Below, one piece after another: positions 1 through 39,166 of a stretch of DNA of 64,000 nucleotides. The DNA lies in the NCBI RefSeq assembly GCF_044647545.1, contig NZ_CP172818.1; one strand, given 5' to 3'. This stretch comes from Escherichia coli. Lineage in GTDB: Bacteria; Pseudomonadota; Gammaproteobacteria; Enterobacterales; Enterobacteriaceae. Made by a program: the position numbers and the translations under genes. Below the pieces are notes generated by a model that was given only the letters and a program-made list of their open reading frames with translations, ran no database searches and was not told the DNA's origin. Numbering within the stretch: position 1 is the first letter of the stretch; each line of letters opens with the position of its first letter.

Positions 1-1871
1 GAATTTTATCAGCGTTCGATTAACGAACCGGAGCAGTTCTGGGCCGAGCAGGCCGTGTATTGACTGGCAGACGCCCTTTACGCAAACGCTCGATCACAGC
101 AATCCGCCGTTTGCCCGTTGGTTTTGTGAAGGCTGAACCAACTTGTGCACAACGCTATCGACCGCTGGCTGGAGAAACAGCCAGAGGCGCTGGCGCTGAT
201 TGCCGTCTCTTCGGAAACAGAAGAAGAGCGCACCTTTACCTTTCGTCAGCTGCATGACGAAGTGAACGCGGTGGCCTCAATGTTGCGTTCATTGGGCGTG
301 CAGCGTGGCGATCGGGTGCTGGTGTATATGCCGATGATTGCCGAAGCGCATATTACTCTGCTGGCCTGCGCGCGCATTGGCGCTATTCACTCGGTGGTGT
401 TTGGGGGATTTGCCTCGCACAGCGTGGCGGCGCGAATTGATGATGCTAAACCGGTGCTGATTGTCTCGGCTGATGCCGGAGCGCGCGGTGGCAAAATCAT
501 TCCCTATAAAAAATTGCTCGACGATGCGATAAGTCAGGCGCAGCACCAGCCACGCCATGTTTTGCTGGTGGATCGCGGGCTGGCGAAAATGGCGCGCGTC
601 AGCGGGCGGGATGTCGATTTCGCGTCGTTGCGCCATCAACACATCGGCGCGCGGGTACCGGTGGCGTGGCTGGAATCCAACGAAACCTCCTGCATTCTCT
701 ACACCTCCGGCACGACCGGCAAACCTAAAGGCGTGCAGCGTGACGTCGGCGGATATGCGGTGGCGCTGGCGACCTCGATGGACACCATTTTTGGCGGCAA
801 AGCGGGCGGTGTGTTCCTTTGTGCTTCGGATATCGGCTGGGTGGTGGGGCGTTCTATATCGTCTACGCGCCGCTGCTGGCGGGGATGGCGACTATCGTTT
901 ACGAAGGATTACCGACCTGGCCGGACTGCGGCGTGTGGTGGAAAATCGTCGAGAAATATCAGGTTAGCCGGATGTTCTCAGCGCCGACCGCCATTCGCGT
1001 GCTGAAAAAATTCCCTACCGCTGAAATTCGCAAACACGATCTCTCGTCGCTGGAAGTGCTCTATCTGGCTGGAGAACCGCTGGACGAGCCGACCGCCAGT
1101 TGGGTGAGCAATACGCTGGATGTGCCGGTGATCGACAACTACTGGCAGACCGAATCCGGCTGGCCGATTATGGCGATTGCTCGCGGTCTGGACGACAGGC
1201 CGACGCGTCTGGGAAGCCCCGGTGTGCCGATGTATGGCTATAACGTGCAGTTGCTTAATGAAGTCACCGGCGAACCGTGTGGCGTCAACGAGAAAGGGAT
1301 GCTGGTGGTGGAAGGGCCGCTGCCGCCGGGGTGTATTCAGACCATCTGGGGCGACGACGGCCGCTTTGTGAAGACTTACTGGTCGCTGTTTTCCCGCCCG
1401 GTGTACGCCACCTTTGACTGGGGCATCCGTGACGCTGACGGTTATCACTTTATTCTCGGGCGCACTGACGATGTGATTAACGTTGCCGGGCATCGGCTGG
1501 GGACGCGCGAGATTGAAGAGAGTATCTCCAGCCATCCGGGCGTTGCCGAAGTGGCGGTGGTTGGGGTGAAAGATGCGCTGAAAGGGCAGGTGGCGGTGGC
1601 GTTTGTCATTCCGAAAGAGAGCGACAGTCTGGAAGATCGTGATGTGGCGCACTCGCAAGAGAAGGCGATTATGGCGCTGGTGGACAGCCAGATTGGCAAC
1701 TTTGGCCGCCCGGCGCACGTCTGGTTTGTCTCGCAATTGCCAAAAACGCGATCCGGAAAAATGCTGCGCCGCACGATCCAGGCGATTTGCGAAGGACGCG
1801 ATCCTGGAGATCTGACGACCATTGATGATCCTGCGTCGTTGGATCAGATCCGCCAGGCGATGGAAGAGTAG
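1..1871 (+). pseudogene. prpE: propionyl-CoA synthetase (AMP-forming acyl-CoA synthetase), 5'-truncated by window edge and frame-disrupted
   Basis: Translation is acyl-CoA synthetase-like (YTSGTTGKPKG motif ~696-731; C-terminal SGKMLRR). Frame is broken: stop at 61-63 in entry frame, TGA at 134-136 in the continuing frame, frame changes near 146-148 and 850-854; ORF fragments 145-1005 and 819-1871 overlap in different frames. Confidence 0.8.
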
Positions 1872-1875
1872 GTTA

Positions 1876-2050
1876 TTGTCGGATGCGTCGCGCGGCGCAT
1901 CCGGCACTGGTGCCGATGCCTGATGCGACGCTGACGCGTCTTATCATGCCTACGGACCTGAACCGTAGGTCGGATAAGGCGCTCGCGCCGCATCCGACAC
2001 CATGCTCAGATGCCTGATGCGACGCTGACGCGTCTTATCAGGCCTACCCA
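1876..2050. repeat. cluster of REP-like palindromic units (BIME-like)
   Basis: Repeated GCCGGATGCG...CGCATCCGAC / GCCTGATGCGACGCTGACGCGTCTTATCAGGCCTAC palindromes typical of enterobacterial REP elements. Confidence 0.6.
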
Positions 2051-2117
2051 CTGTTTTTACACCGATAATTTTTCCCCCACCTTTTTGCACTCATTCATAT
2101 AAAAAATATATTTCCCC

Positions 2118-2133
2118 ACGAAAACGATTGCTT
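2118..2133 (+). promoter_or_regulatory. PurR-box-like operator upstream of codB
   Basis: acgaaaacgattgctt resembles the PurR operator consensus (aCGcAAaCGtTTtCnT); position fits the codBA promoter. Recollection-based. Confidence 0.4.
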
Positions 2134-2199
2134 TTTATCTTCAGATGAATAGAATGCGGCGGATTTTTTGGGTTTCAAACAGCAAAAAGGGGGAATTTC

Positions 2200-3455
2200 G
2201 TGTCGCAAGATAACAACTTTAGCCAGGGGCCAGTCCCGCAGTCGGCGCGGAAAGGGGTATTGGCATTGACGTTCGTCATGCTGGGATTAACCTTCTTTTC
2301 CGCCAGTATGTGGACCGGCGGCACTCTGGAACCGGTCTTAGCTATCATCAATTCTTTCCTCGCAGTTCTCATCGGTAATCTTCTCCTCGGTATTTACACT
2401 TGATTTCTCGGTTACATTGGCGCAAACCGGCCTGACCACTCATCTTCTTGCTCGCTTCTGGTTTGGTGTTAAAGGCTCATGGCTGCCTTCACTGCTACTG
2501 GGCGGAACTCAGGTTGGCTGGTTTGGCGTCGGTGTGGCGATGTTTGCCATTTCGGTGGGTAAGGCAACCGGGCTGGATATTAATTTGCTGATTGCCGTTT
2601 CCGGTTTACTGATGACCGTCACCGTCTTTTTTGGCATTTGGCGCTGACGGTTCTTTCGGTGATTGCGGTTCCGGCTATCGCCTGCCTGGGCGGTTATTCC
2701 GTGTGGCTGGCTGTTAACGGCATGGGCGGCCTGGACGCATTAAAAGCGGTCGTTCCCGCACAACCGTTAATTTCAATCTCGCGCTGGCGCTGGTTGTGGT
2801 CATTTTCTGGTGGGTACGCTCGCCGCTGGCGCCTTTTGTCCGGTTTGGTCGCAATGCCAAACTGGCGGTGCTGGTGGCGATGGTGGCCTTTTTCCTCGGC
2901 AACTGGTTGATGTTTATTTTCGGTGCAGCGGGCGCTGCGGCACTGCGCATGGCGGATATCTCTGATGTGATGATTGCTCAGGGCCTGCTGCTGCCTGCGA
3001 TTGTGGTGCTGGGGCTGAATATCTGGACCACCAACGATAACGCACTCTATGCGTCGGGTTTAGGTTTCGCCAACATTACCGGGATGTCGAGCAAAACCCT
3101 TTCGGTAATCAACGGTATTATCGGTACGGTCTGCGCATTATGGCTGTATAACAATTTTGTCGGCTGGTTGACCTTCCTTTCGGCAGCTATTCCTCCAGTG
3201 GGTGGCGTGATCATCGCCGACTATCTGATGAACCGTCGCCGCTATGAGCACTTTGCGACCACGCGTATGATGAGTGTCAATTGGGTGGCGATTCTGGCGG
3301 TCGCCTTGGGGATTGCTGCAGGCCACTGGTTACCGGGAATTGTTCCGGTCAACGCGGTATTAGGTGGCGCGCTGAGCTATCTGATCCTTAACCCGATTTT
3401 GAATCGTAAAACGACAGCAGCAATGACGCATGTGGAGGCTAACAGTGTCGAATAA
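2200..3455 (+). pseudogene. codB: cytosine permease, frame-disrupted
   Basis: GTG start at 2200 with upstream SD; N-terminus MSQDNNFSQGPVPQSARKG. Gene is split into four ORF fragments (2200-2403, 2417-2647, 2638-2910, 2796-3455): premature TGA 2401-2403 and frame changes near 2404-2430, ~2636 and ~2770. Confidence 0.8.
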
Positions 3456-4728
3456 CGCTTTACAAACAATTATTAACGCCCGGTTACCAGGCGAAGAGGG
3501 GCTGTGGCAGATTCATCTGCAGGACGGAAAAATCAGCGCCATTGATGCGCAATCCGGCGTGATGCCCATAACTGAAAACAGCCTGGATGCCGAACAAGGT
3601 TTAGTTATACCGCCGTTTGTGGAGCCACATATTCACCTGGACACCACGCAAACCGCCGGACAACCGAACTGGAATCAGTCCGGCACGCTGTTTGAAGGCA
3701 TTGAACGCTGGGCCGAGCGCAAAGCGTTATTAACCCATGACGATGTGAAACAACGCGCATGGCAAACGCTGAAATGGCAGATTGCCAACGGCATTCAGCA
3801 TGTGCGTACCCATGTCGATGTTTCGGATGCAACGCTAACTGCGCTGAAAGCAATGCTGGAAGTGAAGCAGGAAGTCGCGCCGTGGATTGATCTGCAAATC
3901 GTCGCCTTCCCTCAGGAAGGGATTTTGTCGTATCCCAACGGTGAAGCGTTGCTGGAAGAGGCGTTACGCTTAGGGGCAGATGTAGTGGGGGCGATTCCGC
4001 ATTTTGAATTTACCCGTGAATACGGCGTGGAGTCGCTGCATAAAACCTTCGCCCTGGCGCAAAAATACGACCGTCTCATCGACGTTCACTGTGATGAGAT
4101 CGATGACGAGCAGTCGCGCTTTGTCGAAACCGTTGCTGCCCTGGCGCACCATGAAGGCATGGGCGCGCGAGTCACCGCCAGCCACACCACGGCAATGCAC
4201 TCCTATAACGGGGCGTATACCTCACGCCTGTTCCGCTTGCTGAAAATGTCCGGTATTAACTTTGTCGCCAACCCGCTGGTCAATATTCATCTGCAAGGAC
4301 GTTTCGATACGTATCCAAAACGTCGCGGCATCACGCGCGTTAAAGAGATGCTGGAGTCCGGCATTAACGTCTGCTTTGGTCACGATGATGTCTTCGATCC
4401 GTGGTATCCGCTGGGAACGGCGAATATGCTGCAAGTGCTGCATATGGGGCTGCATGTTTGCCAGTTGATGGGCTACGGGCAGATTAACGATGGCCTGAAT
4501 TTAATCACCCACCACAGCGCAAGGACGTTGAATTTGCAGGATTACGGCATTGCCGCCGGAAACAGCGCCAACCTGATTATCCTGCCGGCTGAAAATGGGT
4601 TTGATGCGCTGCGCCGTCAGGTTCCGGTACGTTATTCGGTACGTGGCGGCAAGGTGATTGCCAGCACACAACCGGCACAAACCACCGTATATCTGGAGCA
4701 GCCAGAAGCCATCGATTACAAACGTTGA
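3445..4728 (+). CDS. codA: cytosine deaminase
   Basis: GTG start at 3445 ([14 protein letters not shown]...), 427 aa, 11-bp overlap with codB end; amidohydrolase motifs (HIHLD). Confidence 0.9.
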
Positions 4729-4750
4729 ACGACTGGGTTACAGCGAGCTT

Positions 4751-5150
4751 AGTTTATGCCGGATGCGGCGTGAACGCCTTATCCGGCCTACGTAGAGCAC
4801 TGAACTCGTAGGCCTGATAAGCGTAGCGCATCAGGCAATTCCAGCCGCTGATCTGTGTCAGCGGCTACCGTGATTCATTCCCGCCAACAACCGCGCATTC
4901 CTCCAACGCCATGTGCAAAAATGCCTTCGCAGCGGCTGTCTGCCAGCTGTAGTTTATGCCGGATGCGGCGTGAACGCCTTATCCGGCCTACGTAGAGCAC
5001 TGAACTCGTAGGCCTGATAAGCGTAGCGCATCAGGCAATTCCAGCCGCAGACCTGTGTCAGCGGCTACCGTGATTCATTTCCGCCAACAACCGCGCATTT
5101 ATCCAACGCCATGTGCAAAAATGCCTTCGCGGCGGCTGTCTGCCAGCTAT
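4751..5150. repeat. 200-bp direct tandem duplication (two copies, ~96% identical) containing REP-like palindrome and the 3' end of cynR
   Basis: Copy 1 at 4751-4950 and copy 2 at 4951-5150 align base-for-base with ~7 mismatches; copy 2 overlaps the last ~86 bp of cynR. Confidence 0.8.
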
Positions 5151-5964
5151 TTTTCCGCCGCAACAAAACCGCCGTTCTCTCCAGTAGTGGCGGGGCAAGA
5201 GAAATAGCTTTAAGCCCGTCATGTTGTGTGGCAATCGCTGCTGGTAACAATGTGGAAAGGGAAGTGCGGCGAATCAGCTCCAGAACCGCGCTAATTGAGT
5301 TCGCCTCAATGACCACCTGTGGATGTAGCCCCGCTTTCTCGCAGTAGTGGTCAATTTGCTCTCTGGTGGCAAATTCCGCGCTGAGCAGGACCAGTTTTTC
5401 ATCATGCAAGCGACTCAACGCCACCTGTTCATGGACGGCCAGCGGATGATGTTGCGCCACGACTAACGCTAAACTTTCTGTCAGTAAAGGAATTGCCTCC
5501 AGCTCCGGCGAATGCACAGGCGCGAAGGCAATCCCAACGTCCAACTCGTCGCGGCAAAGCATATCCTCGATTTTCTCCTGCGACATTTCCTGTAGCTGGA
5601 GCGTGATGCTGGGATAGCGCGCATAGAAATCCGCCATTAAGGGGCCGATAAAGTAGCTCGTAAAGGTGGGGGTGACGGCGATACGCAGCGATCCTCGCGT
5701 CAGATCGGCAACATCATGAATCGCCCGTTTACCCGCCCCCAGTTCCTGTAACGCCCGGCTGGCGTACTGTCGCCAGACTTCTCCTGCATCAGTGAGACGA
5801 ATCGTTCGCCCGCTACGGTCAAACAGCGGCACGCCTAAACTCTCCTCTAACTGGCGAATCTGCTGGGAAAGCGCAGGTTGGGAGACGTGCAACGCACTGG
5901 CGGCACGGGTGAAGCTGCCATGTTCAGCCACGGCAAGAAAATAATTGATATGTCGAGAGAGCAT
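5065..5964 (-). CDS. cynR: LysR-type transcriptional regulator of the cyn operon
   Basis: 299-aa ORF starting [40 protein letters not shown] (LysR HTH), divergent from cynT. Confidence 0.9.
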
Positions 5965-6072
5965 TCGCAACCTATAAGTAAATCCAATGGAACTCATCAT
6001 AAATGAGACTTTTACCTTATGACAATCGGCGAGTAGTCTGCCTCTCATTCCAGAGACAGACAGAGGTTAACG

Positions 6073-6732
6073 GTGAAAGAGATTATTGATGGATTCCTTA
6101 AATTCCAGCGCGAGGCATTTCCGAAGCGGGAAGCCTTGTTTAAACAGCTGGCGACACAGCAAAGCCCGCGCACACTTTTTATCTCCTGCTCCGACAGCCG
6201 TCTGGTCCCTGAGCTGGTGACGCAACGTGAGCCTGGCGATCTGTTCGTTATTCGCAACGCGGGCAATATCGTCCCTTCCTACGGGCCGGAACCCGGTGGC
6301 GTTTCTGCTTCGGTGGAGTATGCCGTCGCTGCGCTTCGGGTATCTGACATTGTGATTTGTGGTCATTCCAACTGTGGCGCGATGACCGCCATTGCCAGCT
6401 GTCAGTGCATGGACCATATGCCTGCCGTCTCCCACTGGCTGCGTTATGCCGATTCAGCCCGCGTCGTTAATGAGGCGCGCCCGCATTCCGATTTACCGTC
6501 AAAAGCTGCGGCGATGGTACGTGAAAACGTCATTGCTCAGTTGGCTAATTTGCAAACTCATCCATCGGTGCGCCTGGCGCTCGAAGAGGGGCGGATCGCC
6601 CTGCACGGCTGGGTCTACGACATTGAAAGCGGCAGCATCGCAGCTTTTGACGGCGCAACCCGCCAGTTTGTGCCACTGGCCGCTAATCCTCGCGTTTGTG
6701 CCATACCGCTACGCCAACCGACCGCAGCGTAA
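6073..6732 (+). CDS. cynT: carbonic anhydrase (beta class)
   Basis: 219-aa ORF, GTG start; beta-carbonic-anhydrase motifs (CSDSR, HSNCG). Confidence 0.9.
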
Positions 6733-6744
6733 CCTTATTTTTAA

Positions 6745-7233
<489 letters not shown>

Positions 7234-7265
7234 CAGCCATGCGCAACCATCAAAAGACGTTCACG

Positions 7266-8420
7266 ATGCTGCTGGTACTGGTGCTGATTGGTCTTAATAT
7301 GCGACCACTGCTCACCTCCGTCGGGCCACTGCTACCGCAATTGCGCCAGGCGAGCGGAATGAGCTTTAGCGTGGCTGCCCTGTTGACCGCTCTGCCGGTG
7401 GTTACCATGGGCGGGCTGGCGCTGGCCGGAAGCTGGCTTCATCAGCATGTCAGCGAACGTCGCAGTGTCGCCATCAGTCTGTTGCTGATTGCCGTCGGTG
7501 CATTGATGCGTGAGCTTTACCCGCAAAGTGCGCTGCTGCTTAGCAGCGCACTGCTTGGTGGGGTGGGGATCGGCATCATTCAGGCGGTGATGCCTTCGGT
7601 GATTAAACGGCGGTTTCAGCAGCGCACGCCACTGGTGATGGGGCTGTGGTCCGCGGCTCTGATGGGCGGCGGTGGGCTTGGTGCCGCCATAACGCCCTGG
7701 TTAGTTCAACATAGCGAAACCTGGTATCAAACACTCGCCTGGTGGGCGCTGCCTGCCGTTGTTGCGCTCTTTGCCTGGTGGTGGCAAAGCGCCCGCGAGG
7801 TCGCCTCTTCCCACAAGACAACAACCACTCCGGTTCGCGTGGTATTCACTCCCCGCGCGTGGACGCTGGGTGTTTACTTCGGTCTGATTAACGGCGGTTA
7901 CGCCAGCCTGATTGCCTGGTTACCCGCTTTCTATATTGAGATTGGTGCCAGCGCGCAGTACAGCGGTTCCTTACTGGCATTGATGACGCTTGGGCAAGCC
8001 GCAGGAGCTTTGCTGATGCCTGCTATGGCTCGCCATCAGGATCGGCGCAAACTGTTAATGCTGGCGCTGGTGTTACAACTGGTGGGGTTCTGCGGCTTTA
8101 TCTGGCTGCCGATGCAATTGCCGGTATTGTGGGCGATGGTGTGTGGGTTAGGTCTGGGCGGCGCGTTTCCGCTCTGTTTGCTGCTGGCGCTCGATCACTC
8201 TGTGCAACCGGCTATTGCTGGCAAGCTGGTGGCGTTTATGCAGGGAATCGGTTTTATCATCGCCGGGCTTGCCCCGTGGTTTTCTGGCGTGCTGCGTAGT
8301 ATCAGCGGCAATTACCTGATGGACTGGGCATTTCATGCGCTGTGCGTCGTTGGGCTGATGATCATAACCCTGCGTTTTGCACCAGTACGTTTTCCGCAGC
8401 TGTGGGTCAAAGAGGCATGA
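7266..8420 (+). CDS. cynX: MFS cyanate transporter
   Basis: Hydrophobic multi-TM ORF; 384 aa from ATG 7266 (an upstream in-frame ATG at 7239 would give 393 aa). Confidence 0.85.
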   Translation: MLLVLVLIGLNMRPLLTSVGPLLPQLRQASGMSFSVAALLTALPVVTMGGLALAGSWLHQHVSERRSVAISLLLIAVGALMRELYPQSALLLSSALLGGVGIGIIQAVMPSVIKRRFQQRTPLVMGLWSAALMGGGGLGAAITPWLVQHSETWYQTLAWWALPAVVALFAWWWQSAREVASSHKTTTTPVRVVFTPRAWTLGVYFGLINGGYASLIAWLPAFYIEIGASAQYSGSLLALMTLGQAAGALLMPAMARHQDRRKLLMLALVLQLVGFCGFIWLPMQLPVLWAMVCGLGLGGAFPLCLLLALDHSVQPAIAGKLVAFMQGIGFIIAGLAPWFSGVLRSISGNYLMDWAFHALCVVGLMIITLRFAPVRFPQLWVKEA

Positions 8421-8520
8421 TGCGACGCTTGTTCCTGCGCTTTGTTCATGCCGGATGCGGCTAATGTAGATCGCTGAACTTGTAGGCCTGATAAGCGCAG
8501 CGTATCAGGCAATTTTTATA
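8421..8520. repeat. REP-like palindromic element between cynX and lacA
   Basis: GCCGGATGCGGC / GCCTGATAAGCGCAGCG palindromic units. Confidence 0.5.
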
Positions 8521-8522
8521 AT

Positions 8523-9134
8523 TTAAACTGACGATTCAACTTTATAATCTTTGAAATAATAGTGCTTATCCCGGTCGTTTATTTCGCGAATAACCCGACA
8601 AGGAACGCCAGCCGCCACGACGTTTGGTGGAATGTCTTTTGTGACGATACTACCCGCGCCAATAACAGAATTATCCCCGATGGTGACGCCTGGATTAATA
8701 ACCACATGACTTCCGATCCAGACGTTATTGCCAATCGTTATCGGAAAAGAGTACATCTCGCCGTTTTTTCTCAATTCATGGTGTACAGGGTGTCCCGTAA
8801 CGGAAAGAGTAACGTTGGGTGCAATCAGTACGTTATCACCGATTGTTACCGTGTAGTCATCGACAATGGTTAAATTGAAATTTGCATAAAAATTGCGGCC
8901 TATATGGATGTTGGAACCGTAAGAGAAATAGACAGGCGGTTCTACCCAGGCGTTTTCCCCTACCGTGGCAAACATTTCTTTAATCAGGCTTTCTCTTTTT
9001 TCAACTTCTGATGGATGCGAGTGATTAAACTCATACATTAACGTTTTCCCACGAAGTCTTTTTTCCGGTAAGCCTTCGCACATATCGGTAAATAGCTTGC
9101 CTGCTCTTATTCTTTCGGTCATTGGCATGTTCAA
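8523..9134 (-). CDS. lacA: galactoside O-acetyltransferase
   Basis: 203-aa hexapeptide-repeat acetyltransferase; start is TTG (complement at 9132-9134) giving LNMPMTER, consistent with the known unusual lacA start. Confidence 0.9.
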   Translation of the reverse strand: MNMPMTERIRAGKLFTDMCEGLPEKRLRGKTLMYEFNHSHPSEVEKRESLIKEMFATVGENAWVEPPVYFSYGSNIHIGRNFYANFNLTIVDDYTVTIGDNVLIAPNVTLSVTGHPVHHELRKNGEMYSFPITIGNNVWIGSHVVINPGVTIGDNSVIGAGSIVTKDIPPNVVAAGVPCRVIREINDRDKHYYFKDYKVESSV

Positions 9135-9199
9135 TGCGATCACTCCGTTATGATATGTTGGTCGGATAAGGCGCTCGCGCCGCATCCGACATTGATTGC

Positions 9200-10498
<1,299 letters not shown>

Positions 10499-22155: not shown

Positions 22156-22329
22156 TGATGACTGCCGAGAACGTGCATTTTGTATGCCCATCCCAGCACG
22201 ACTGCCGGATGTAAACGCCTTGTTCGGCCTACATTTTCTTCGCCTGTAGGCAGTCATTAAATGGTTCTGATTACGCGGCTGGCAATGTATCAGCCGCGAT
22301 TCACCTGCACTCGCAACGAGGTTCATCTT

Positions 22330-24199: not shown

Positions 24200-24340
24200 G
24201 CAGCACCCACACCAGCCAGCAAGAGCGGATAAGGCGTCCGCCCACCGGCAGCGTGCATCCTGATGACGCTTTGCATCTATCATCCTAGTTTCCAGAAATA
24301 GGATAAGGCGTTCACGCCGCATCCGGCAGTCGTGCACTAT
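24200..24340. repeat. REP-like palindromic elements between yaiL and frmB
   Basis: GGATAAGGCGTTCACGCCGCATCCGGCAG-type units. Confidence 0.5.
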
Positions 24341-27646: not shown

Positions 27647-28203
27647 TTAATCTCCTGTACGGATAAGTTCTTGTCGGAGTGAATAAGTTCCGGTAGGTAA
27701 ATTACGTTCTACAATCACGCGCGGGCCAAGTTGCGTGTTCGGGGAAATAATTCGCCCAGGCAAAATAATAACTTGTACGCCAAGGCGTGAACGCTGTCCG
27801 ATATAACAACCTAATTTATCGCATCCGGTAGCGATAATTCCCTCTGGAGTTCGAACAGACACGGGCTGTTCATCCAGACGATGATTACTGGTACGTACTT
27901 GTGCGCCCAAATATGCCTGGTTTGCGACTACCGAGTCGGCAATAAAACATTGCGGACCAATCGTTGCTTCCGCTTCAATAACCGCATTTTTAATTTCGGT
28001 GGCGAAACCAATTTTTACGCCATTGCTGATTATTGTGCCAGGACGAATAAACGAAATTACCTATCAGGCAGTTTGCGCCAATCACTACCGGACCCTGAAT
28101 AACGGCACCGTGACAAATACGGGTATTCGCGCCGATAACAACTTCACCTGCAGTTTCATCAATAATTACCTGGTCTGCAATCTGAATATTTTTCTCTTTA
28201 ACA
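27647..28203 (-). pseudogene. yaiX: hexapeptide-repeat acyltransferase, frameshifted
   Basis: Hexapeptide repeats (VIGANTRICHGAVIQGPVVIGANCLIGN) continue in another frame (IRPGTIISNGVKIGFA...) with the switch near 28040-28060; no IS element at the break. Confidence 0.7.
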
Positions 28204-33263: not shown

Positions 33264-34111
33264 GTGAACGTCTGAGCATTACCCCGCTGGGGCCGTATAT
33301 TGGCGCACAAATTTCGGGTGCCGACCTGACGCGCCCGTTAAGCGATAATCAGTTTGAACAGCTTTACCATGCGGTGCTGCGCCATCAGGTGGTGTTTCTG
33401 CGCGATCAAGCTATTACGCCGCAGCAGCAACGCGCGCTGGCCCAACGTTTTGGCGAACTGCATATTCATCCTGTTTACCCTCATGCCGAAGGGGTTGACG
33501 AGATCATCGTCCTGGATACTCATAACGATAATCCGCCGGATAACGACAACTGGCATACCGATGTGACATTTATTGAAACGCCACCCGCAGGGGCGATTCT
33601 GGCGGCAAAAGAGTTACCCTCGACCGGCGGCGATACGCTCTGGACCAGCGGTATTGCGGCCTATGAGGCGCTCTCTGTTCCCTTCCGCCAGCTGCTGAGC
33701 GGGTTGCGTGCGGAGCATGATTTCCGTAAATCGTTCCCGGAATACAAATACCGCAAAACCGAGGAGGAGCATCAACGCTGGCGCGAGGCGGTCGCGAAAA
33801 ATCCGCCGTTGCTACATCCGGTGGTGCGAACGCATCCGGTGAGCGGTAAACAGGCGCTGTTTGTGAATGAAGGCTTTACCACGCGAATTGTTGATGTCAG
33901 CGAGAAAGAGAGCGAAGCCTTGTTAGGTTTTTTGTTTGCCCATATCACCAAACCGGAGTTTCAGGTGCGCTGGAGCTGGCAACCGAATGATATTGCGATT
34001 TGGGATAACCGTGTGACTCAGCACTATGCCAATGCGGATTACCTGCCACAGCGGCGGATTATGCATCGGGCGACGATTCTTGGGGATATTCCGTTTTATC
34101 GGGCGGGGTAA
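33260..34111 (+). CDS. tauD: taurine dioxygenase (alpha-ketoglutarate dependent)
   Basis: 283-aa ORF, 4-bp overlap with tauC; HxD...H iron-binding residues (WHTDVTF). Confidence 0.9.
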
Positions 34112-34135
34112 ACGGATAACCCGGCATAATGATCA

Positions 34136-35110: not shown

Positions 35111-37124
35111 GGTCTGCCTGATGTTTGTGGAATCGAGGGGCATAGTATACCTGAAGCAGGGTGGGGATGTTTTACGAAAGTTGTCGCGATGTTGACAAGA
35201 AGAGAATGAATGAGAGGCCAGGACATCTTTGTAATAGAAATAGCAATAATTTCATATTCACTGAAAATATTTTTAATTTTTATTTATAGTCATGGATTAT
35301 TGTTTTTGGGGATTTGGTTGCGTTATCAAAAACGGAATGATTTAAAGTTCATTGGTTATTGATAGATTATTTGTCTGGTTTGTGTGTTTGATATTTTAAA
35401 TGCATATGCTTTAAAAATGGAAATCCTGTTAACTTGTTGAAACATTAAGCCTTTATCAATTTTTTCTTTGTGTGTTCCTCCGTGCTTTATATATGTCCGT
35501 AACCGGACTTCGGGGAAAGAATAATTGAACCATTCCTCAATAACGCCGCATAATCGTTAGCGCGAAACATAATATGTTTTCTATGCATTGATAATTGATG
35601 GATCAACTTATTACGTCCCTGAGGAGGGATGACAAATGCACTCCTGGAAAAAGAAACTTGTAGTATCACAATTAGCATTGGCTTGCACTCTGGCTATCAC
35701 CTCTCAGGCTAATGCAGCGACCTACTGATACCTGGACTTATATCGATAATCCCGTTACAGCACTTGATTGGGATCATATGGATAAGGCAGGCACTGTAGA
35801 TGGCAACTATGTAAACTATAGTGGTTTTGTCTATTACAACAACACCAATGGTGATTTCGATCAGTCCTTTAACGGCGATACCGTTAACGGCACGATCTCA
35901 ACCTATTATTTGAACCATGATTATGCAGACAGTACTGCTAATCAGCTTGATATCAGTAATTCAGTGATTCACGGTTCGATTACTTCTATGCTGCCTGGCG
36001 GTTATTATGATCGTTTTGATGCAGATGGTAATAATCTGGGTGGATATGATTTTTACACTGATGCGGTTGTTGATACACACTGGCGTGATGGTGATGTTTT
36101 CACTTTGAACATTGCTAACACTACTATTGATGATGATTATGAAGCTCTTTACTTCACTGATTCTTATAAAGATGGTGATGTAACCAAGCACACAAATGAG
36201 ACATTTGATACAAGTGAAGGCGTTGCTGTTAATCTTGATGTAGAAAGTAACATCAATATTTCCAATAACTCCCGCGTTGCAGGTATTGCATTATCTCAAG
36301 GTAATACTTACAACGAAACCTACACTACCGAATCTCATACTTGGGATAACAATATCTCTGTAAAAGATTCCACAGTGACTTCGGGTTCAAATTATATCCT
36401 GGATAGCAATACTTATGGCAAAACTGGTCACTTTGGCAATTCTGATGAACCGAGTGATTATGCTGGCCCGGGTGATGTTGCAATGTCCTTTACTGCTTCA
36501 GGTTCCGACTATGCGATGAAGAACAATGTATTCCTCAGCAATTCAACGCTGATGGGTGATGTTGCCTTTACCAGCACCTGGAATAGTAATTTTGATCCGA
36601 ATGGTCATGATTCCAACGGTGACGGGGTGAAAGATACCAACGGGGGTTGGACTGATGATAGCCTCAACGTTGATGAACTAAATCTCACTCTCGATAACGG
36701 AAGCAAGTGGGTTGGTCAGGCAATTTATAACGTTGCTGAAACGTCAGCAATGTATGATGTTGCTACAAACAGCCTTACTCCTGATGCAACATATGAAAAC
36801 AATGACTGGAAACGTGTTGTTGATGACAAGGTCTTCCAGAGCGGTGTATTTAACGTAGCGTTGAATAACGGTTCTGAATGGGATACTACAGGTCGTTCCA
36901 TCGTTGATACCTTGACAGTTAATAATGGTTCTCAGGTTAATGTTTCGGAATCTAAATTAACTTCAGATACTATCGATTTAACTAACGGTTCTTCGCTGAA
37001 CATTGGTGAAGATGGCTACGTTGATACCGATCATCTGACTATTAACTCCTACAGTACTGTTGCGTTGACCGAATCTACTGGGTGGGGGGCTGATTGATCC
37101 TACCCACGTAATATGGACACAGGC

Positions 37125-37991
37125 CTAAGCGAGGTTCTTGTTTTCAAATTGTTCCGGACTGAGGCCGCCACACCAACTGTGCCGCCGCCACCGATTGTAA
37201 TCACATTCGATATAATTAAACACCGTTGCCCGCATTATTTCCCGGCTGATAAAGTGTTCTCCATGGATACATTCCACTTTCAGCGAATGAAAGAAGCTTT
37301 CCACGCAGGCATTATCGTAGCAGCAACCTTTTGCGCTCATACTTCCACGCAGATTATGCCGCTTCAGTTGCGCCTGATAATCTGCTGAACAGTACTGGCC
37401 TCCACGGTCCGTGTGAACGATAACGTTCCGGGGCCTCTTACGCCGCCACAGCGCCATCTGCAGGGCATCGCAGGCCAGTTGCGCCGTCATGCGTGGCGAC
37501 ATTGACCAGCCAATAACGGCACGTGACCACAGGTCAATGACCACTGCCAGATACAGCCAGCCTTCATCTGTACGTAAGTACGTGATGTCTCCTGCCCACT
37601 TCTGGTTCGGGCCACTGGCGTAAAAATCCTGCTCCAACAGATTTTCTGACACAGGCAGGCCGTGTGCGCGGTAGCTGACCGGGCTGAACTTCCGGGAGGC
37701 CTTTGCCCTCAGTCCCTGACGGCGCAGGCTTGCCGCCACGGTTTTTACGTTAAAGGGGTAACCCTGAGCACGCAGTTCATCCGTCAGGCGTGGGGCACCG
37801 TAACGCTGTTTTGACCGGGTAAAAGCCGCGAGGACAACGCTGTCGCAGTGTTGGCGGAACTGCTGACGCGTGCTTATCCTTGTCCGCCGCTGACACCACG
37901 TATACCAGCCGCTGCGGGCCACCCGGAGCACGCGGCACATTGCTTTGATGCTGAACTCAGCCTGATGTTTTTCAATAAAGACATACTTCAT
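37125..37991 (-). CDS. insF: IS3 transposase OrfB (DDE integrase domain), expressed with OrfA by -1 frameshifting
   Basis: 288-aa ORF overlapping insE by 4 bp (ATGA); DDE/integrase-like translation. Confidence 0.9.
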
Positions 37992-38296
37992 TTCAGGCGC
38001 TTCGCGAAGTATGTCGCGGCCTTTTGGAGGATAGCCAGCTCTTCATCCCGTTCTGCCAGCTGGCGTTTGAGACGTGCAATCTCGGTAGACATCTCCAGTT
38101 CACGTTCAGAAGACGTCTGCTGATTTTGCTGTTTACTGCGCCAGTTGTAGAGTTGTGATTCATACAGGCTGAGTTCACGGGCTGCGGCAGTAACACCGAT
38201 GCGTTCAGCAAGCTTCAGGGCTTCACTGCGAAATTCAGGCGAATGCTGTTTACGGGGTTTTTTACTGGTTGATACTGTTTTTGTCATGTGAGTCAC
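37988..38296 (-). CDS. insE: IS3 transposase OrfA (HTH)
   Basis: 102-aa [58 protein letters not shown]... Confidence 0.9.
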
Positions 38297-39166
38297 CTCT
38301 GACTGAGAGTTTACTCACTTAGCCGCGTGTCCACTATTGCTGGGTAAGATCAGATTACAACCTGTACGCCAATACTATCACCGTAACTAACGGCGGTGTA
38401 TTGGATGTGAACGTTGATCAGTTCGATACTGAAGCTTTCCGTACTGACAAACTGGAACTGACCAGCGGCAACATCGCTGACCATAACGGTAACGTAGTAT
38501 CTGGTGTGTTCAATATCGAAAGCAACCGCTTCGTACTTGATGCCGACCTGACCAACGACCGTACCAACGATACTACCAAGTCAAACTACGGTTATGGTTT
38601 AATCGCAATGAACTCTGATGGTCACCTGACCATTAACGGTAACGGCGATAACGACAACACTGCTTCTATCGAAGCTGGTCAGAACGAAGTTGATAACAAC
38701 GGTGACCATGTTGCAGCTGCAACCGGTAACTACAAAGTTCGTATCGACAACGCTACTGGTGCTGGTTCTATCGCTGACTACAACGGCAACGAGCTGATCT
38801 ACGTTAACGACAAAAACAGCAACGCGACCTTCTCTGCTGCTAACAAAGCTGACCTGGGTGCATACACCTATCAGGCTGAACAGCGCGGTAACACCGTTGT
38901 TCTGCAACAGATGGAGCTGACCGACTACGCTAACATGGCGCTGAGCATCCCGTCTGCGAACACCAATATCTGGAACCTGGAACAAGACACCGTTGGTACT
39001 CGTCTGACCAACTCTCGTCATGGCCTGGCTGATAACGGCGGCGCATGGGTAAGCTACTTCGGTGGTAACTTCAACGGCGACAATGGCACCATCAACTATG
39101 ATCAGGATGTTAACGGCATCATGGTCGGTGTTGATACCAAAATTGACGGTAACAACGCTAAGTGGA

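Follow-up and report, generated by a model that had tools for sequence, protein, structure and literature searches.

Interruptions of prpE and codB in an Escherichia coli chromosome record are probably errors of a reference-templated consensus

The prpE locus and its reading frames

The window (the whole 64,000-nucleotide stretch of Escherichia coli DNA analysed here) carries prpE, codB, codA, cynR, cynTSX, lacAYZ, lacI, and the mhp genes in this order and runs on to phoB, corresponding to the E. coli 7–9 min region. It opens at codon 5 of prpE, so the position of prpD lies out of view; the downstream order of codB, codA, and cynR fits that of references with prpD–prpE. The gene is the ordinary, already well-known prpE of E. 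coli, here split into four reading-frame segments. Its lesions were called by alignment to the intact prpE of strain 33-6, of K-12 MG1655, and of the ST648 strain FDAARGOS_497, together with ten other contigs, and are as follows.

1–1871, plus strand: prpE (propionate–CoA ligase), from codon 5 to the native stop, in four reading-frame segments
54–63, plus strand: 2-bp deletion (reference CG) after base 54 and C>T at 56, called by alignment; absent in 13 of 13 references
134–136, plus strand: C>T at 134, private to the window, by which an Arg codon (CGA) of the true, shifted frame becomes TGA
145–150, plus strand: 1-bp deletion at 147; added to the 2-bp deletion it gives a net −3, and the entry frame returns
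817–855, plus strand: three private changes, namely the substitutions T>C at 817 (F278L) and A>G at 851 (H289R) and, at 854, the loss of one base (G)

Frame 1 (EFYQRSINEPEQFWAEQAVY) is shifted by the 2-bp deletion after base 54 and consequently terminates at the TGA at 61–63. The sequence continues as recognisable PrpE in frame 2 (IDWQTPFTQTLDHSNPPFARWFCEG) up to the TGA at 134–136, and frame 1 is resumed from the GTG at 145 (MHNAIDRWLEKQ...) as a 286-aa ORF spanning 145–1005. The deletion at 854 then throws the rest of the gene into frame 3, with no later compensation, and the remainder is read as a 350-aa ORF (819–1871) that reaches the native stop. With stops at 61–63 and 134–136 and frame changes at 54, 147, and 854, no intact prpE ORF is present; the longest one as deposited has 350 aa, and none spans the TIGR02316 model. 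Besides the lesion sites, further window-private substitutions in prpE lie at 817, 1130, and 1475.

All four interruptions that the initial annotation had placed in prpE are thus present in the sequence, and the comparison with K-12 prpE that it had proposed yields the 2-bp deletion after 54, the C>T at 134, and the 1-bp deletions at 147 and 854. Its description of the segments as still recognisable acyl-CoA synthetase also holds: the fragment 145–1005 matches positions 2–220 of the Pfam AMP-binding family (PF00501), the fragment 819–1871 matches positions 221–377 of the same model plus AMP-binding_C (PF13193), and the motif YTSGTTGKPKG is found in the deposited sequence. The annotation had further named a single continuous ORF of ~628 codons after error correction as the outcome that would speak against its reading, and this is what we obtained. 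With four bases reinserted and the substitution at 134 undone, the gene reads as one continuous 628-codon ORF, whose product scores 1297.7 bits against the equivalog TIGR02316 (cutoff 827.4) and covers model positions 1–628. The repaired 628-aa PrpE differs from that of strain 33-6 by three residues (R24C, F278L, and H289R), all at positions that are invariant in the PrpE proteins of Salmonella, Citrobacter, and E. albertii.

For programmed recoding, be it frameshifting or read-through, that would give a full-length PrpE from the gene as it stands, nothing speaks beyond the cancelling of the −2 and −1 shifts within 93 nt. We give this reading next to no credence, given that it would have to cope with four separate lesions including an in-frame TGA, that nothing further on compensates the last −1 shift, at 854, that every relative examined has one uninterrupted ORF, and that neighbouring codB is riddled with the same kind of lesion. 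A search for a slippery motif shared among the lesion contexts found none.

A dense lesion tract from prpE into codB

The initial annotation had treated the damage as a matter of prpE. It belongs instead to a 2.9-kb tract that spans prpE, the REP-containing spacer, and 60% of codB, in a chimeric record that appears to be reference-templated.

1872–2199, no strand assigned: prpE–codB spacer with REP elements; private 1-bp deletion at 1909
2200–3455, plus strand: codB (cytosine permease), broken into ORFs of 67, 76, 90, and 219 aa
2947–9577, no strand assigned: tract with zero differences from K-12 MG1655, comprising the codB 3′ end, codA, cynRTSX, lacA, and the 3′ part of lacY

Positions 1–2946 hold 31 private events, made up of 13 indel events (11 of them deletions) and 18 substitutions, with groups near roughly 100, 835, 1900, 2390, and 2800. 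The tract runs beyond prpE, crosses the REP spacer, covers the initial 60% of codB, and has its final lesion at base 2946, so that its boundary falls in the middle of codB and not at a gene boundary. Within codB we counted nine indel events (at 2327, 2355, 2423, 2639, 2769, 2797, 2805, 2809, and 2831–2834) and 12 private substitutions, 11 of which are missense or nonsense, including the nonsense change S68* at 2402. The damage to codB exceeds that to prpE, and every codB lesion lies upstream of 2946. The C-terminal 219-aa codB fragment holds a RefSeq protein accession, WP_400165115.1, given by PGAP.

The error tract ends abruptly. Over the following 6,631 bp (2947–9577) the window is 100% identical to K-12 and bears no lesion. 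Were the 31 lesions spread uniformly over 1–9577, the probability of all of them falling into the first 2,946 bp would be ~1e-16; in terms of density, 10.5 events fall on each kb of the tract, whereas the 95% upper bound for the adjacent 6.6 kb is 0.45 per kb, a more than 20-fold excess.

The spectrum of the lesions is equally abnormal when set against the natural baseline, for which we used the divergence between K-12 and ST648 over 45 kb of the same region. Indels make up 42% of the events in the tract (13/31) versus 4.5% in the baseline (p = 3e-10), and G<->C swaps account for 39% of the substitutions (7/18) versus 6% (p = 6e-5). Each of the seven G<->C swaps is preceded by T. Fifteen of the 18 substitutions are missense or nonsense, striking residues that are invariant across genera. 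Neither in density nor in spectrum does the prpE–codB tract resemble natural decay. Two further sources could be set aside on these grounds: only two to three of the 13 indels lie in homopolymer runs, contrary to a homopolymer-type platform error, and the residues that the private amino-acid changes affect do not vary among Salmonella, Citrobacter, and E. albertii, contrary to leakage of alleles from another genus.

None of the lesions was found elsewhere. A search of 5,426 complete E. coli genomes returned no carrier, and among the genomes covering at least 80% of window positions 1–2200, 5,217 of 5,217 differ from the window; the best match reaches 99.3%, in an alignment over 1–2200 that includes every lesion. 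An exact 34-mer over the first lesion had no match in the GTDB representative genomes. At the protein level, the frameshift-tail peptide produced by the deletion at 854 was matched identically by none of 5.8 billion protein clusters, and the exact 286-aa PrpE, 219-aa CodB, and 67-aa CodB fragments occur once each among ~15 billion proteins, all three from a single NCBI contig of 4,499,902 bp. The identical CodA protein is widespread, being present in 26,787 blocks of the collection, and all ten of the listed contigs with identical CodA carry an intact 628-aa PrpE and a 419-aa CodB.

With the private lesions put aside, the tract is an ordinary phylogroup-A haplotype, that of strain 33-6, from which four non-private differences separate it over 1–2200. 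Such a clean background argues that the tract was not imported from a lineage with long-dead genes. An old, decayed prpE–codB pseudogene allele that was recombined in from an unsampled lineage might have been considered because the window is clearly mosaic, with phylogroup-A beside ST648-type sequence, so that recombination or chimerism must be present. Still, the background is nearly identical to living alleles (33-6 and K-12) with no excess of synonymous divergence, the indel-to-substitution ratio of 13:18 is far above that of natural decay, and the allele is missing from the 5,426 genomes and 15 billion proteins searched; we hold this origin to be highly improbable.

In the prpE region (156–1988), 16 SNPs depart from K-12 and match the natural haplotype, implying that real phylogroup-A reads covered prpE. 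For a phylogroup-A prpE to stand in a window otherwise of ST648 type, the isolate must be a natural recombinant, or the sample or culture must have been mixed or contaminated. The same 16 SNPs exclude a legacy K-12 sequence entry as the source of the gene. A mixed consensus of two haplotypes was likewise rejected, as the lesions lie off the sites that differ between ST648 and phylogroup A, and these sites carry clean A-type alleles.

Could the lesions nonetheless be genuine? A strain-specific inactivation, through a localized burst of error-prone repair or deliberate mutagenesis of prpE–codB, would be compatible with their presence in a record accepted by RefSeq (the 219-aa CodB fragment having received its accession from PGAP) and with the remaining window being error-free over 54 kb. 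Loss of codB is moreover selectable with 5-fluorocytosine. Selection, however, would need no more than a single lesion, and the 2.9 kb hold 31, with zero private change in the flanking DNA and a spectrum unlike natural E. coli divergence. The tract terminates within codB rather than at a gene boundary, no lesion is common to any relative, and the same window bears other artefact-like scars tied to K-12 structures (see below). On balance, we consider genuine inactivation unlikely. That all 31 lesions are real, with the strain being a natural phylogroup A/F recombinant that underwent a localized, deletion-rich, and G<->C-biased burst of hypermutation over ~3 kb, appears very unlikely to us; if true, the burst would have struck next to a tract of recombination or deletion, destroying prpE and codB but sparing the flanks, and would parallel, in a bacterium, break-associated clustered mutation.

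A mosaic window with scars at K-12 structures

Downstream of the K-12-identical stretch, the window changes its type. Comparison with both types places the switch inside lacY, and from 9578 to 64000 the sequence is 100% of ST648 type (FDAARGOS_497, MS6198, ECONIH1), apart from five places. All five of these departures (22210, 24203–24300, 28053, 34111, and 35726–38511) coincide with structural differences between K-12 and ST648.

9302–9577, no strand assigned: switch from K-12/phylogroup-A type to ST648 type inside lacY
22205–22215, no strand assigned: 5-bp deletion within a REP element of the mhpE–mhpT spacer, at a K-12 versus ST648 structural difference
24203–24300, no strand assigned: garbled, deletion-rich copy of the K-12 two-REP structure, where ST648 relatives have one REP only
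28050–28056, no strand assigned: two 1-bp deletions, 6–8 bp from the K-12 IS2A site, splitting a yaiX-orthologue acetyltransferase gene
34105–34120, no strand assigned: 15-bp deletion in a hairpin of the tauD–hemB spacer, at a K-12 versus ST648 structural difference
35726–38511, no strand assigned: block of 2,786 bp, 100% identical to K-12 yaiT::IS3B, inside ST648-type ehaB sequence

The junction in lacY (9302–9577) was absent from the 5,426 genomes, with a best match of 99.5%. The two deletions at 28050–28056 leave the acetyltransferase gene in ORFs of 121 and 87 aa, and this deleted form was found in none of the 4,839 genomes that hold the locus. The yaiT::IS3B block has a left junction with one extra base and interleaved differences and a right junction within an 11-nt stretch shared by both types; both junctions lie within sequence that differs by ~8% between the K-12 and ST648 types. 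Two of the features by which a templated artefact may be recognised were found, namely a block identical to the template without clean homologous crossovers and scars at K-12-specific structures. The contig with the three protein fragments, presumably the source of the window, is 4.50 Mb long and thus near the size of K-12 (4.64 Mb); among the ST648-type records listed, those matching at 100% have 4.94–5.31 Mb. The yaiT start codon, at 35636, does not share its frame with the 461-aa ORF beginning at 35712.

Outside the scarred sites, the other genes of the window appear intact from a reading of its ORF list. Reductive evolution of the Shigella kind was rejected, with lacIZYA intact and a backbone that is 100% ST648-type E. 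coli.

Two side observations may be added. Within the codA–cynR spacer, two adjoining copies of ~206 bp that are ~96% alike occupy 4743–5148; the arrangement, recorded from secondary BLAST hits only, is also present in 33-6 and K-12. Separately, a record labelled 'MG1655' (NZ_CP032667.1, 16550–17432) contains an engineered lacI–lacZ insertion with aac(3)-Ia as well as integrase and cat fragments, which is a caution against using it as a K-12 reference.

The footprints of the K-12 IS2, IS3, and REP structures point to a consensus templated on K-12, as a de novo assembly of a natural isolate would have no reason to carry them. The same structures bear on whether the errors might have arisen in another way, that is, from a low-quality single-pass or legacy patch, or from an unpolished gap-fill, in a de novo assembly without K-12 templating. 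In favour of such an origin, the lesion clusters resemble the read ends of single-coverage primer walking, and the G<->C miscalls and missed bases are those of poor Sanger traces, which typically show both. The high number of WP_400165115.1, which presumably dates the submission to around 2024–25, suggests instead the long-read era, and the K-12-identical blocks and the scars at K-12 IS2, IS3, and REP structures would be left unaccounted for. We thus assign little probability to errors of this kind.

A probable templated consensus and its likeness to known systems

On the sequence evidence, we consider it likely that the prpE interruptions are errors in the deposited assembly, arising from a reference-templated consensus, and not mutations of the bacterium, whose own prpE copy is probably intact. 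Of the alternatives that the initial annotation had left standing, recent lesions or errors, the errors are favoured, and recent evolutionary lesions are disfavoured by the clustering, the spectrum, and the lack of any other carrier.

The sequence of events may be pictured as follows. An E. coli K-12 genome would have served as the template for a consensus of reads from another isolate, mostly of ST648 type. Good reads would have converted the template perfectly; stretches with no reads, or with reads that failed to align, would have retained the K-12 sequence; and where support was thin or misaligned, a deletion-biased scramble would have resulted, as in the 2,946-bp tract across prpE, the REP spacer, and codB. 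We infer that thin or contaminating read support caused this tract. A read support that tapers to nothing would fit the sharp transition at 2946, where error-rich sequence gives way to the pure template.

Several observations sit less easily with an artefact. Correct natural SNPs coexist with 11 errors in the same prpE stretch; the T-context G<->C bias matches no textbook error profile of a single platform that we can name; and the other 54 kb are flawless, so the assembly is not generally poor. Even so, the phenomenon is most likely one of reference bias together with an under-supported consensus, and not a new biological feature.

The biological weight of a broken prpE is accordingly small and its weight for data quality larger. 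The record has been accepted in RefSeq, and fragments made by errors now figure there as proteins, among them WP_400165115.1, a 219-aa 'cytosine permease'. In studies of pangenomes and populations, templated records can give rise to spurious pseudogene calls, recombination events, and K-12 alleles.

At least two further RefSeq 'complete' records look K-12-templated, judging by their sequences. PD007 (NZ_CP120910.1) has the length of K-12 plus 14 bp and places prpE at coordinate 352,709 versus 352,706, while carrying dozens of non-K-12 SNPs. BS-04 (NZ_CP172819.1) resembles K-12 in its coordinates and also contains the K-12 yaiT::IS3 block, with edges garbled in their own way; both of its yaiT fragments are flagged as frameshifted by PGAP. 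A literature search on the BS-04 project found no relevant paper.

Compared with known systems, the gene is closest to E. coli PrpE (b0335; TIGR02316/NF007815), with which it shares the locus and, downstream in the same order, codB, codA, cynR, and the lac operon; as deposited, though, two of its segments are shifted in frame, a TGA lies in frame, and three residues that do not vary across genera are substituted. In being a metabolic gene with frameshifts and a stop whose family is still recognisable, it is reminiscent of the pseudogenes of Shigella and host-restricted E. coli. Natural pseudogenes, however, carry lesions common to a clone, usually one or a few or an IS insertion, are spread genome-wide, and show neutral decay like that of their flanks, whereas those of the tract in the window occur in one record only, at a density that exceeds the upper bound for its flank more than 20-fold. 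The likeness to the apparently templated records PD007 and BS-04 lies in a K-12-like size or coordinates combined with non-K-12 SNPs and in blocks identical to K-12 where the divergence of the sample is too great, with garbled junctions, notably the yaiT::IS3B block (in BS-04). Both of these records have intact prpE and codB, in contrast to the window, and the dense error tract is specific to the window record.
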